A stretch of 64,000 nucleotides of DNA, from positions 3,491-67,490 of the forward strand of contig JAGOSO010000004.1 in the NCBI GenBank assembly GCA_018062285.1. Direction: 5' to 3'. Positions 22,855 to 23,152 of the stretch are shown piece after piece; within the stretch, counting starts at the first letter, position 1, and every line of letters starts with the position of its first letter. The notes beneath the pieces were generated by a model. It made no database searches and was not told the DNA's origin. It saw nothing but the letters and a program-made list of their open reading frames with translations. Origin of the DNA: Minisyncoccota bacterium (lineage in GTDB: Bacteria > Patescibacteriota > Minisyncoccia > 2-02-FULL-40-12 > GWA2-44-9). The position numbers were made by a program, and so were the translations under genes.

Positions 22855-23152
22855 ACCCTCACACCTACTCAGTTTTAATCATGTATTTTTTCTACGTTTT
22901 AAAAAGTACAAAGAACGAAGAGTTGTACTTTGGATATACAGAAGACTTGAGAGCTAGATTGGGGCAACACAATTCCGGGAAGGTTCCATCTACGAATTTG
23001 AAAAAACCACTAGTTTTAGTGTATTATGAAGCCTACCGATCACAATCTGATGCTAAGCACAGAGAACATAGCATTAAGTTAAGAGGTAACGCCTATTTGC
23101 AACTCAAAAGAAGAATTAGGAATTGTGTTGCAGAAACTGAGTAGGTGTAAGG
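22855..23152. mobile_element. GIY-YIG mini-ORF bracketed by 17-bp inverted repeats (CCCTCACACCTACTCAG / CTGAGTAGGTGTAAGGG), abutting tRNA-Glu
   Basis: The inverted repeats are nearly identical to the arms of the hairpin at 8740-8803. Confidence 0.5.
22881..23144 (+). CDS. GIY-YIG nuclease superfamily protein (87 aa)
   Basis: YFFYVLKS...LYFGYTEDLRARLGQHN matches the GIY...YIG catalytic motif. Confidence 0.7.
   Translation: MYFFYVLKSTKNEELYFGYTEDLRARLGQHNSGKVPSTNLKKPLVLVYYEAYRSQSDAKHREHSIKLRGNAYLQLKRRIRNCVAETE

Follow-up and report, generated by a model that had tools for sequence, protein, structure and literature searches.

Why a gene for a very small nuclease should lie inside a long palindrome at the 5′ end of a tRNA gene, and why almost the same palindrome recurs without a gene in the same 64,000-nucleotide stretch of DNA (in the following the window), is the question raised by this locus. 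A preliminary description had read the gene as a small homing-endonuclease-like element carried by, or targeting, a palindromic repeat, with one filled and one empty copy. Comparison with related loci leads us to another reading: the 298-bp unit is probably a compact, insertion-like element that encodes a hairpin-recognising nuclease and relies on it for its movement, with the hairpin at 8740–8803 as a gene-less miniature relative.

Organization of the Gene-Bearing Unit

An inverted-repeat scan of the window and direct reading of the sequence confirmed the matching arms around an 87-aa GIY-YIG ORF. The left arm (22856–22875, CCCTCACACCTACTCAGTTT) and the right arm (23134–23153, AAACTGAGTAGGTGTAAGGG) are 20 nt long, complementary at 19 positions (95%) and separated by 258 nt; the single C·A mismatch of the stem is due to an A at 23149, where all relatives have a G. 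The unit thus delimited (22856–23153) comprises 298 bp, 264 bp of which are taken up by the ORF (22881–23144), a GIY-YIG nuclease gene of the UPF0213/SLX1-like type according to Pfam, profile and hhalign matches. The left arm stops 5 nt upstream of the ATG, and the right arm contains the last four codons of the ORF and covers its stop codon. GC and GC3 of the ORF are both 0.36 and resemble those of host genes. A promoter dedicated to the ORF is not evident in the sequence, and the ORF is read from host transcripts.

Both arms, the ORF and the adjoining tRNA-Glu(CTC) gene are on the plus strand. ARAGORN places the tRNA at 23152–23224 and Rfam at 23152–23223 (RF00005, 60.6 bits), and the 3′-terminal GG of the right arm represents nucleotides 1 and 2 of the tRNA, which corroborates that the element ends at the tRNA 5′ end, with an overlap of 2 nt. 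Directly upstream of the left arm lies the left member of a flanking direct repeat (22849–22855, plus strand): GGCCCCA, a partial copy of the first 7 nt of tRNA-Glu (GGCCCTA) with 6 of 7 positions identical. If the alternative ends CCCTCAC...GTGAGGG are assumed, a 5-nt duplication results (CCCCA/CCCTA, 4/5 match). In relatives this flanking repeat is exact, with GGCCCTA in L083, GGCGCCA in L084, L003, L102, L142 and L166, and GGCCCCG in L099; a tRNA-Glu junction as in the window recurs in L083, L084, L102, L142, L156, L166 and L099.

The left arm begins 9 nt past the stop codon of murF, as would suit an intrinsic terminator. However, terminator-like sites were not called anywhere in 22500–23400, no T run follows the arms, the loop of 258 nt does not fit a terminator, and the arm motif has been kept together with the ORF in hundreds of distant genomes. 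A chance palindrome is at odds with the distribution of the 12-mer CCCTCACACCTA, which occurs three times exactly and once with a single mismatch in the window, always in one of the four arms of the two hairpins; the chance expectation for a given 12-mer in 2 × 64 kb is about 0.008 by our own arithmetic. Ordinary terminators or a chance palindrome are therefore extremely improbable, and we rejected the terminator reading because of the missing terminator-like sites and the restriction of the motif to these arms. This also disposes of the objection, raised with the preliminary description, that the motif might be a ubiquitous terminator found at many gene ends. Beyond the hairpin at 8740–8803, the 64-kb window contains no further copy of the arm of the gene-bearing element. 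With only two or three arm-bearing loci in 64 kb, the copy number of such units in the source genome may be low. At gathering threshold, the Rfam families found in the window were tRNAs only, with no intron family among them. A reading as a group I intron with a homing gene was rejected on the size of the unit and these Rfam results.

A Single-Domain GIY-YIG Protein

The 87-aa protein matches Pfam PF01541 (GIY-YIG) with E = 2e-14 over residues 1–70 and has no second domain; it matched no family in NCBIfam or PHROG. Its profile (A1) was built from 32 homologues, the window protein included, across which the catalytic-type residues Y16, R26, H30 and E62 are invariant. The best matches of this profile among solved structures were 1zg2 (UPF0213 protein BH0048, E = 1.3e-12) and 1ywl (EF2693, E = 2.1e-8), whereas the match to 1mk0 was weak (E = 0.018 over 32 residues). 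In an hhalign comparison with SsnA of N. gonorrhoeae, a probability of 97% was obtained (E = 2.6e-11, 30% identity). A tblastn search of plasmids returned weak matches only, with YazA (UPF0213) at 5e-5 and SsnA at 0.1. The HNSGK motif of the protein is also UPF0213-like, and the protein looks nearer to UPF0213 than to SsnA. The dN/dS of the ORF amounts to 0.03–0.16, and the protein is, by this measure, under strong purifying selection.

Arms and Gene Form a Family in Patescibacteria

The search for further copies of the arm, with and without the ORF, had been proposed as a check and proved productive: about 65 of 81 homologous loci, mostly from Patescibacteria, carry the arm motif in a layout like that in the window, and without the ORF a 64-nt family was found at unrelated sites in metagenomes. 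In 57 of the 81 loci the inverted repeat bracketing the ORF lies above the 95th percentile of a cross-locus control. The outer arm motif of the family is CCC[CTG]CAC(ACC), and the inner stem is variable yet fully compensated, with a median stem length of 20 bp and mostly 0–1 mismatches (66 stems). The distance from the left arm to the start codon is 0–10 nt.

The family is inserted at the 5′ ends of tRNA or tmRNA genes (tmRNA in L075), in 23S rRNA (L014, L016, L076 and L035; three at the classical helix-25 intervening-sequence site), 16S rRNA (L073, L081) and RNase P RNA (L050, L082), and just past the stop codons of co-oriented genes. Most of its members are located outside rRNA. Elements within or against rRNA, tRNA, tmRNA or RNase P RNA genes are always on the strand of the RNA gene, and co-orientation of neighbouring genes is frequent both upstream (29:7) and downstream (26:4). 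The element often starts 0–5 nt past a stop codon, which is often TAA(A).

This variety of sites bears on the model of the preliminary description, in which a host palindrome came first, the GIY-YIG ORF homed into its loop and 8740–8803 would be an unoccupied target. There are indeed short hairpins that share the outer motif and have loops of 0–6 nt (L007, L015, L023, L046, L062), and in five loci (L015, L023, L057, L080, L042) the ORF lies beside a complete hairpin and not within it; three of these (L015, L023, L057) have a full hairpin upstream and a half-site downstream. On the other hand, the flanking direct repeats sit outside the arms and not next to the ORF, the conserved C-terminus and the stop codon are encoded by the right arm, and the supposed empty copy, with its own conserved core, is an insertion in its turn. 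Furthermore, arms and ORF are inherited together at very different target types, so the palindrome as a pre-existing target has to be given up: the arms travel with the ORF to tRNA 5′ ends, 23S helix 25, 16S, RNase P RNA, tmRNA and post-stop sites. We consider homing into a host palindrome very unlikely. As judged from these comparisons, the arms are the terminal repeats of the element itself, neither a host terminator nor an invaded host palindrome. What remains of the earlier reading is a small GIY-YIG element that looks selfish and is linked to a palindromic repeat, whereas the likeness to homing endonucleases suffers from the missing DNA-binding domain and intron context.

Signs of Movement

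An exact flanking direct repeat of at least 4 nt was found in 43 of 103 repeat pairs, compared with about 4.6 expected (approximately ninefold). The length of the duplication differs by subfamily: most have 4 nt, the Glu family has 5 nt and the Ala/Val family at least 7 nt; an exact duplication was not seen in about half of the elements, nor in any of the rRNA-borne ones. The long direct repeats (7–20 nt) at tRNA 5′ ends could be resolved into a short duplication, the G run of the element and remnants of earlier tandem insertions, and their interpretation as a carried tRNA fragment was rejected after this resolution. In L048, tandem arrays occur at a single tRNA. Two ORF-less copies in L071 resemble the ORF significantly (scores of 63 and 37 compared with control maxima of 33 and 27) and are, on these scores, visibly decayed ORFs. 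Similarity to the ORF was not detected in nine other ORF-less copies, including 56177–56296 of the window. The idea that all ORF-less copies are decayed ORFs was rejected, as it holds for the two L071 copies only.

Duplications of 4 bp and T-rich targets are typical for several families of DDE transposases. Conceivably, an unrelated transposase whose gene lies at another locus, such as a DDE enzyme, moves a miniature element whose ends are the arms, and the ORF is a passenger. The duplications and T-rich targets of the family would fit such a transposase, GIY-YIG enzymes are not known as DNA transposers, and the interiors of most ORF-less copies are unrelated to the ORF. However, the GIY-YIG ORF is the only gene seen between the arms in about 65 loci and fills the unit almost completely, and subfamilies of arms and of proteins co-vary. 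Moreover, a scan of arms up to 720 nt apart revealed no arm-bounded unit with a transposase. A passenger gene appears highly improbable to us.

The ORF-bearing element of the window has been retained at tRNA-Glu across a divergence at which synonymous sites are saturated. Because of this long stay and its host-like composition, this particular copy may be domesticated or immobile.

Gene-Less Hairpins in the Window

The hairpin at 8740–8803 (plus strand), described with 15-nt arms and a 34-nt loop, was verified and turned out to be a conservative reading: the arms extend over 21 nt (8739–8759 and 8784–8804), are 95% complementary and leave 24 nt between them. Its termini are shared with the gene-bearing element, with 16 of 17 terminal nucleotides identical, and at arm position 13 the two palindromes differ in a compensated manner (C..G in the ORF element, G..C in the miniature). 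An Rfam search of 8450–8900 with permissive thresholds gave no credible match. The part of the earlier claim that stands is accordingly that versions with and without the ORF have common ends; the part that does not is the empty target, since 8740–8803 belongs to a conserved miniature family. The stem of this 64-nt element measures 20 bp and encloses a conserved, asymmetric core of 24 nt (family alignment A4). Its relatives are 62–64 nt long and carry no ORF; in 8 copies taken from different metagenomes the mean column identity is 88%. They are scattered over unrelated sites, may point in either direction and are often flanked by 4-nt duplications. The flanks of the window copy, TTAA and TGCA, do not match. 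The 24-nt interior was compared with the ORF by eye only.

The miniature is at the centre of a lineage-specific insertion of about 140 nt (8705–8848, plus strand) between the conserved L10 leader and the start codon of rplJ. This insertion folds into one extended hairpin (RNA fold −59.9 kcal/mol, z = −7.6) and is missing at the same site in the closest relative, L205, which has the same YceG-126aa-L10-L12 gene order.

A further ORF-less hairpin at 56177–56296 belongs to a sister arm class (CCCCTCACTTGAAAGGCTT / AAGCCTTTCAAGTGAGGGG), with a 19-bp stem, an interior of 82 nt and the flanks TGGA and TTGA. Its arms are similar to those that bracket GIY-YIG ORFs in L036, L045, L048 and L071; between its interior and GIY-YIG ORFs no similarity was detectable.

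Pairing of the Arms in DNA or RNA

Nine related elements have identical outer arm sequences over 15 nt, although their ORFs have diverged to a dS of about 1 or higher. Changes within the arms comprise three compensatory double changes and not a single one-sided change, and 98.9% of the cells are paired. The mismatches in the 66 stems have no wobble bias, with 13 G·T (G·U) compared with 10 A·C. Because G·U is not in excess over A·C, pairing in DNA rather than in RNA is hinted at.

The placement of the family would also suit a stem acting mainly in RNA, as an immobile, intervening-sequence-like insert of stable-RNA operons that is cleaved by RNase III or an enzyme like it. The same-strand position in or against rRNA, tRNA, tmRNA and RNase P RNA genes and the three elements at helix 25 of 23S rRNA are in line with this. 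In addition, the RNA minimum free energy fold of 22846–23230 retains the 20-bp long-range stem (z = −5.0), and with so short a distance between left arm and start codon, pairing would occlude initiation. The long residence at tRNA-Glu, the strong purifying selection and the host-like composition agree as well, as do insertions in CPR rRNA genes that contain GIY-YIG ORFs without being group I or group II introns (PMC11270868). A processing stem, though, requires pairing and not a particular sequence, yet the sequence of the outer arm is conserved phylum-wide and invariant in the Glu family; the balance of G·U and A·C mismatches also does not fit, and the direct repeats, tandem arrays, decayed copies and the dispersed 64-nt family point to movement at the DNA level. 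We regard a stem acting mainly in RNA as rather unlikely, and the same applies to its detailed form, in which cutting frees the tRNA or rRNA and limits or destroys the nuclease mRNA, and the protein is a domesticated host enzyme, for instance in DNA repair like UPF0213/YhbQ. An RNA stem of this kind can nevertheless be compatible with a mobile element, as the reason why insertions are tolerated.

Proposed Mechanism

For the insertion-like element we propose that pairing of the arms in single-stranded DNA produces a stem which is then recognised by the nuclease, in the way the related Ssn nucleases recognise the hairpin repeats beside their own genes. A cut at the foot of the stem would release the complete stem-loop, whether it contains the ORF or not, and permit its renewed insertion, and miniature copies would be mobilised in trans. 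Insertions would survive at sites where they do little harm. Between co-oriented genes, this would often be right at a TAA(A) stop codon; helix tips of rRNA and RNase P RNA would tolerate an insertion, with the arms merely lengthening the helix. At the first nucleotides of a tRNA or tmRNA, the terminal G run of the element would rebuild the 5′ end of the RNA and leave a short upstream copy behind, and the tRNA-Glu junction of the window would be of this kind, its 5′ end completed by the G run. The long-range stem is probably also active in RNA, as a processing stem or by occluding the start codon. To our knowledge, GIY-YIG enzymes are hydrolases without strand-transfer activity, which leaves the origin of a target duplication unexplained. 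With more reserve, as a possibility that we would not favour outright, the 87-aa nuclease might be the sole protein of an unclassified prokaryotic transposable element that moves as a DNA stem-loop, spawns gene-less miniatures and rebuilds tRNA and tmRNA 5′ ends with its G-rich termini.

Relation to Known Systems

Among known systems, the Ssn/NTS pair comes closest. SsnA of Neisseria meningitidis (cd10448) is a single-domain, ssDNA-specific GIY-YIG nuclease that binds hairpin repeats (NTS/SRM) flanking its own gene; the authors remarked on the IS-like layout and proposed an action on single-stranded DNA by analogy with IS200/IS605 and REP/RAYT (Chenal et al., 2025; PMC11893778). Common to both systems are a stand-alone GIY-YIG domain of about 90 aa (87 aa here) with homology detectable by hhalign and a gene flanked on both sides by hairpin-forming repeats that are also found elsewhere in the genome in an IS-like layout. 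Unlike the two self-contained hairpins described there for Ssn, the repeats of the window are half-sites that pair across the gene. The published SRM motif, HGTCWYN(0-2)YYVSBRHN(0-5)WNVSBRGN(0-2)RNCYNB (PMC11893778), had 0 matches on either strand of the window. For comparison, the gonococcal ssnA locus, obtained through the plasmid tblastn search, contains 11 dRS3-type palindromes (ATTCCC-N8-GGGAAT, one mismatch allowed) in 1.8 kb. Other differences are the UPF0213-like HNSGK motif, with YazA matched better than SsnA, and the Patescibacteria as hosts. The sections of the Ssn report consulted for this comparison do not speak of miniature derivatives, of flanking duplications or of insertion into stable-RNA genes (PMC11893778).

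UPF0213, YhbQ and YazA, which are relatives of SLX1, provide the best matches among solved structures and are of the same size with a single domain. We know of these genes as single-copy chromosomal genes and of no flanking inverted repeats described for them.

Insertions with GIY-YIG ORFs that are not introns are known from CPR rRNA genes, where the GIY-YIG proteins were judged to be outside spread by homing (Tsurumaki et al., 2024; PMC11270868); a term search of the paper did not bring up inverted repeats. Like these inserts and the 23S intervening sequences excised by RNase III, the relatives L014, L016, L076, L035, L073 and L081 are stem-bounded rRNA inserts, whereas the copy of the window is at a tRNA 5′ end.

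A DNA hairpin as recognition element, presumed in our case, as well as small elements accompanied by dispersed gene-less hairpins, recall IS200/IS605 and REP/RAYT. Those systems depend on HUH Y1 transposases, their ends carry no inverted repeats that span the element, and they produce no target duplication; here, terminal inverted repeats span the element, the protein is of the GIY-YIG type and flanking direct repeats are enriched in the family. MITEs such as the Correia elements of Neisseria share terminal inverted repeats, an intergenic or co-transcribed placement and transcript hairpins with our elements, and the short direct repeats flanking part of our elements recall their target duplications, but Correia-type MITEs are derived from or moved by DDE transposases, and here the sole associated gene is a GIY-YIG nuclease. 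In contrast to known insertion sequences, there is no DDE, DEDD, HUH, Ser or Tyr transposase, the only ORF being GIY-YIG. Finally, GIY-YIG homing endonucleases (I-TevI, I-BmoI, Seg proteins) resemble the element in their catalytic domain, selfish lifestyle and association with tRNA and rRNA genes. Unlike the I-TevI type, the window protein has no C-terminal DNA-binding domain and no PHROG match, and there is no group I intron (no Rfam match and no room for one); the element is furthermore bounded by inverted repeats with flanking direct repeats. Our literature searches on GIY-YIG elements and UPF0213 found no earlier description of an inverted-repeat-bounded GIY-YIG architecture.

Implications and Annotation

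Insertion-like GIY-YIG elements with gene-less miniatures are a large, barely described family in stable-RNA genes of ultra-small Patescibacteria. They join three observations that have been treated separately: the hairpin-specific Ssn nucleases, the non-intron GIY-YIG inserts in CPR rRNA and the small palindromes of Patescibacteria. Where the Ssn work offered a hypothesis of movement, they supply sequence evidence for it: flanking duplications, insertions in tandem, copies that are decayed or miniaturised, and an insertion found in the window but missing from the closest relative. If the unit is a transposable element, this would explain the non-intron inserts in CPR rRNA genes and suggest a mobility function for Ssn-type nucleases, and should the unit be mobilised by the nuclease itself, transposition would have a route outside the known transposase classes. 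The conserved pairs of arm and enzyme would also supply new sequence- and structure-specific DNA nucleases, and a tRNA 5′ end rebuilt by the end of an element would illustrate how an insertion into an essential gene can do no harm.

The family profile matches 21,766 protein clusters (50% identity) at E ≤ 1e-3 and 4,398 at E ≤ 1e-10. Clusters matching it are currently labelled merely "GIY-YIG nuclease family protein". On annotated homologues, an N-terminal extension PPSHLLS corresponds to translated arm sequence, and because the arm is read as PPSHLLS, the gene calls of at least two homologues (P0012, P0036) seem too long.

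A GIY-YIG gene enclosed by inverted repeats at tRNA-Glu

The 87-aa ORF at 22881-23144 encodes a protein with GIY-YIG as its sole domain (Pfam PF01541, E = 2e-14) and is enclosed by a 20-nt inverted repeat, complementary at 19/20 positions, with the left arm CCCTCACACCTACTCAGTTT at 22856-22875 and the right arm AAACTGAGTAGGTGTAAGGG at 23134-23153. As the preliminary description had stated, the element ends at the 5' end of a tRNA gene: tRNA-Glu(CTC) starts at 23152, two bases within the right arm. The near-identical arms reported for a second palindrome were also recovered. This palindrome (8739-8804, 21-nt arms, 24 nt in between) has 16/17 terminal bases in common with the ORF element, and the sole difference is compensated on the opposite arm. 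It had been considered that the arm might be a ubiquitous terminator, but the 12-mer CCCTCACACCTA is confined, within the window, to the four arms of these two structures (chance expectation about 0.008 occurrences) and there is no terminator-like indication at the element, which leaves this reading unsupported.

The ORF element is found downstream of murF in three related genomes and is a long-term resident of this site. Its GC and GC3 are host-like, in contrast to the nearby IS110-like gene. RNA folding of 22846-23230 keeps the arm stem (z = -5.0). In the minimum-energy fold of this segment, the 3' acceptor strand of the tRNA is engaged by the partial tRNA 5' copy that lies upstream, the true 5' GG of tRNA-Glu is locked within the long stem, and the element resembles an insert between tRNA nucleotides 7 and 8. 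A promoter-like site within the ORF (22998-23027; TTGAAA, 18-nt spacer, TATTAT) is directed at tRNA-Glu; the site does not exceed chance expectation and coincides in part with conserved codons (LKKP...VYYE).

The element belongs to a widespread family

The window derives from a Candidatus Pacebacteria MAG. A degenerate scan covering a single genome for each species gave 593 confirmed homologous loci, of which 80, mostly from Patescibacteria, were retained and compared together with the window. In 57/81 loci the best inverted repeat around the ORF exceeded the 95th percentile of a cross-locus control, and the outer arm motif [AG]CCC[CTG]CAC(ACC) ... (GGT)GTG[GAC]GGG[TC] is present in about 65 of the 81. 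The inner arm sequence varies between loci with complementarity kept; the median stem length is 20 bp (n = 66 stems), mostly with 0-1 mismatches. The start codon is positioned 0-10 nt past the end of the left arm and the stop codon within the right arm, and the N-terminal PPSHLLS extension of some annotated homologues is the arm read as protein. A protein profile (A1) of 32 homologues, including the 87-aa protein, matches 21,766 protein clusters of 50% identity at E<=1e-3 and 4,398 at E<=1e-10. The arms are part of a widespread element, a conserved unit bounded by inverted repeats and carrying one nuclease gene. Many proteins of 230-360 aa combine an N-terminal GIY-YIG domain of this family with a further C-terminal region (e.g., P0203, P0211, P0217, P0219), and a few contain two tandem GIY-YIG stretches (P0183, P0184).

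Both the protein and the arms are under purifying selection in the tRNA-Glu subfamily, for which nine elements were aligned. The dN/dS of the ORF is 0.03-0.16, with synonymous sites near or past saturation. The arms are 98.9% paired, with two-sided changes at three positions and one-sided changes at none, and in the outer 15 nt of each arm the only differences are the G-to-A mismatch at 23149 in the window and one change in L156. This conservation of arm sequence besides pairing points to a binding partner that would be sequence- and structure-specific. Selection purely at the RNA level is not supported by the mismatches over the 66 stems, as G.U pairs (13) are not in excess over A.C (10). In each lineage the upstream copy corresponds to the 5' end of the lineage's own tRNA (GGCCCTA, GGCGCCA, GGCCCCG or GGCCCCA). 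Repeated re-insertion could account for this, as could a function of the copy.

The ORF-less copy is a miniature element

The arm scan of metagenomes revealed five further ORF elements, all at tRNA-Glu 5' ends (L099, L102, L142, L156, L166), and a conserved ORF-less family of 62-64 nt to which 8740-8803 belongs. Its eight copies come from different samples and have a mean column identity of 88%; an asymmetric core is common to them, and one arm position is compensated. Both orientations are represented, the surroundings are unrelated (among them 23S rRNA and the 5' end of a tRNA), and 4/8 have perfect 4-nt flanking repeats. In the window, 8740-8803 forms the centre of an extended hairpin of about 140 nt (z = -7.6), with the conserved L10 leader on one side and the rplJ start on the other; this insert is entirely missing from the closest relative, whose gene order is identical. 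As the family is conserved and dispersed and the insert is absent in the closest relative, 8740-8803 is a miniature element and not the vacant target, or empty copy, that had been proposed. No Rfam family matched it. Two more distant relatives (L206, L209) have a different insert of about 190 nt between the L10 leader and the rplJ start (columns ~245-400 of A2, the alignment of this region), at the position of the window's hairpin insert, so that inserts seem to land here repeatedly. At 56177-56296 there is a hairpin whose arms (CCCCTCACTTGAAAGGCTT) are of a sister class.

Insertion sites and signs of movement

Many elements are located at or within stable-RNA genes, always on the strand of the RNA gene. 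In the window, L083, L084, L009, L019, L021, L036, L048, L049, L053, L056, L057, L069 and L071 the first 2-5 nt of the tRNA are provided by the terminal G run of the right arm. According to Rfam, further elements interrupt 23S rRNA (L014, L016 and L076 in the helix-25 region; also L035) and 16S rRNA (L073, L081), or are associated with RNase P RNA (L050, L082) and the tmRNA 5' end (L075). The elements in L050 (2971-3289) and L082 (2966-3275) directly precede the conserved AGGAAAGTCCG of RNase P RNA and probably extend helix P3; that in L075 (2974-3270) overlaps the first four G of tmRNA. The remaining elements lie between protein genes and are co-oriented with the flanking genes (29:7 upstream, 26:4 downstream); their start often falls 0-5 nt past the upstream stop codon.

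With element ends set at the outermost C:G pairs, 43/103 repeat pairs are flanked by an exact direct repeat of at least 4 nt (25 of 4 nt, 7 of 5, 1 of 6 and 10 of 7), compared with about 4.6 expected for randomly paired flanks and almost none for shifted boundaries. Duplication lengths are non-uniform, and about half of the elements have no exact duplication. A frequent junction is TAAA/CCCCC...GGGGG/TAAA, in which TAA is the stop codon of the neighbour. At tRNA sites the duplication spans nucleotides ~3-7 in the Glu family and ~5-11 in the Ala/Val family; the G run of the element substitutes the tRNA's own 5' Gs, so that an intact tRNA is restored downstream and a short 5' copy stays upstream. 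L048 (1260-1445) contains two ORF-less hairpins in tandem, and a copy of the tRNA-Ala 5' 12-mer comes after each of them. Two ORF-less copies at other tRNAs in L071 (351-550 and 4647-4774) are recognisably decayed or internally deleted GIY-YIG ORFs (similarity scores 63 and 37 versus control maxima of 33 and 27), and the flanking repeat of one is also decayed. The family shows gene-less derivatives, many insertion sites and enriched flanking duplications.

L048 and L071 belong to one MAG (CAYTAF01), and these ORF-less hairpins, tandem or solitary, lie directly on tRNA 5' ends and are each followed by a copy of the first ~12 nt of the tRNA. Past its GIY-YIG element, L003 carries at 3274-3560 a disrupted tRNA-Glu-like gene (GGCGCCATCGTCTA...) with apparently two interruptions. 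An intact tRNA-Glu(CTC) (3427-3499) is found within one nested insert, whose boundaries are formed by the inverted repeat CCCGCACATAGCT (3329-3341 / 3510-3522).

Comparison with known systems and possible mechanism

The phenomenon is real and wider than visible from the window alone, and the preliminary interpretation as a small homing-endonuclease-like element was partly right: a GIY-YIG unit is tied to palindromic arms, but a classical GIY-YIG homing endonuclease can be rejected because both a DNA-binding domain and an intron context are absent. In structure matches, the A1 profile fits best to UPF0213 (1zg2 at 1.3e-12, 1ywl at 2.1e-8) and weakly to SLX1. CPR rRNA inserts with GIY-YIG ORFs, belonging neither to the group I nor to the group II introns, are described by Tsurumaki et al. 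(2024; PMC11270868); a term search of that paper gave no hit for inverted repeats.

Functionally, the nearest precedent is provided by the Ssn family of single-domain GIY-YIG nucleases. Chenal et al. (2025; PMC11893778) describe cleavage of single-stranded DNA only, beside hairpin repeats (NTS/SRM) that flank the Ssn genes themselves and are also dispersed genome-wide, and the authors note an IS-like layout. The gonococcal ssnA locus has 11 dRS3-type repeats within 1.8 kb, and the A1 profile aligns to the ssnA product with 97% probability (E = 2.6e-11). In contrast to Ssn, the arms of the window element are half-sites that pair across the gene, the protein appears nearer to UPF0213, and the published SRM motif has 0 matches in the 64-kb window. 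We therefore group the element with systems of a small GIY-YIG nuclease plus cognate hairpin repeat, with Ssn membership unproven.

It seems fairly probable that the target of the nuclease is the stem into which the arms pair in single-stranded DNA, and that cleavage takes place at the foot of this stem, which would mobilise full-length and miniature units alike. Insertions would be tolerated between genes that are transcribed together, at sites where the arms merely lengthen an RNA helix, and at tRNA genes whose 5' end is restored by the G-rich terminus. To our knowledge, strand-transfer chemistry is not known for GIY-YIG enzymes, and present-day mobility of the window copy is putative. An RNA role of the stem, such as processing or start-codon occlusion, is plausible and would be compatible with a DNA mechanism.

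Other repeats and insertions in the window

Further perfect or near-perfect palindromes at 45955-46004, 43303-43342, 53261-53368, 44651-44692 and 51811-51850, including perfect ones of 50 and 40 nt without spacer and a hairpin with 27-nt arms around a 54-nt loop, have arms unrelated in sequence to the GIY-YIG element. The PBP gene and murF are separated by 1.5 kb of higher GC (0.51; 20053-21535), which looks like another insertion; the two genes are neighbours without it in the relative L084. This stretch contains two minus-strand ORFs with no Pfam match (20251-20610, 20625-21125) and a 21-nt-arm hairpin at its left edge (20056-20159).

Between 25154 and 27760, at least four repeat units of ~240-250 nt (~25154-25397, 27163-27411, 27447-27685 and the next from ~27730), each with GTCCCACCCAC ... 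GTGGGTGGGAC at its ends and many internal hairpins, surround a clearly foreign IS110-like gene (25649-26878; PF02371, GC 0.58, GC3 0.71). The units matched no Rfam family at the gathering threshold and may be a structured RNA or repeat family linked to the IS110-type recombinase. An IS110-like gene is likewise present in L083, between murF and the GIY-YIG element.
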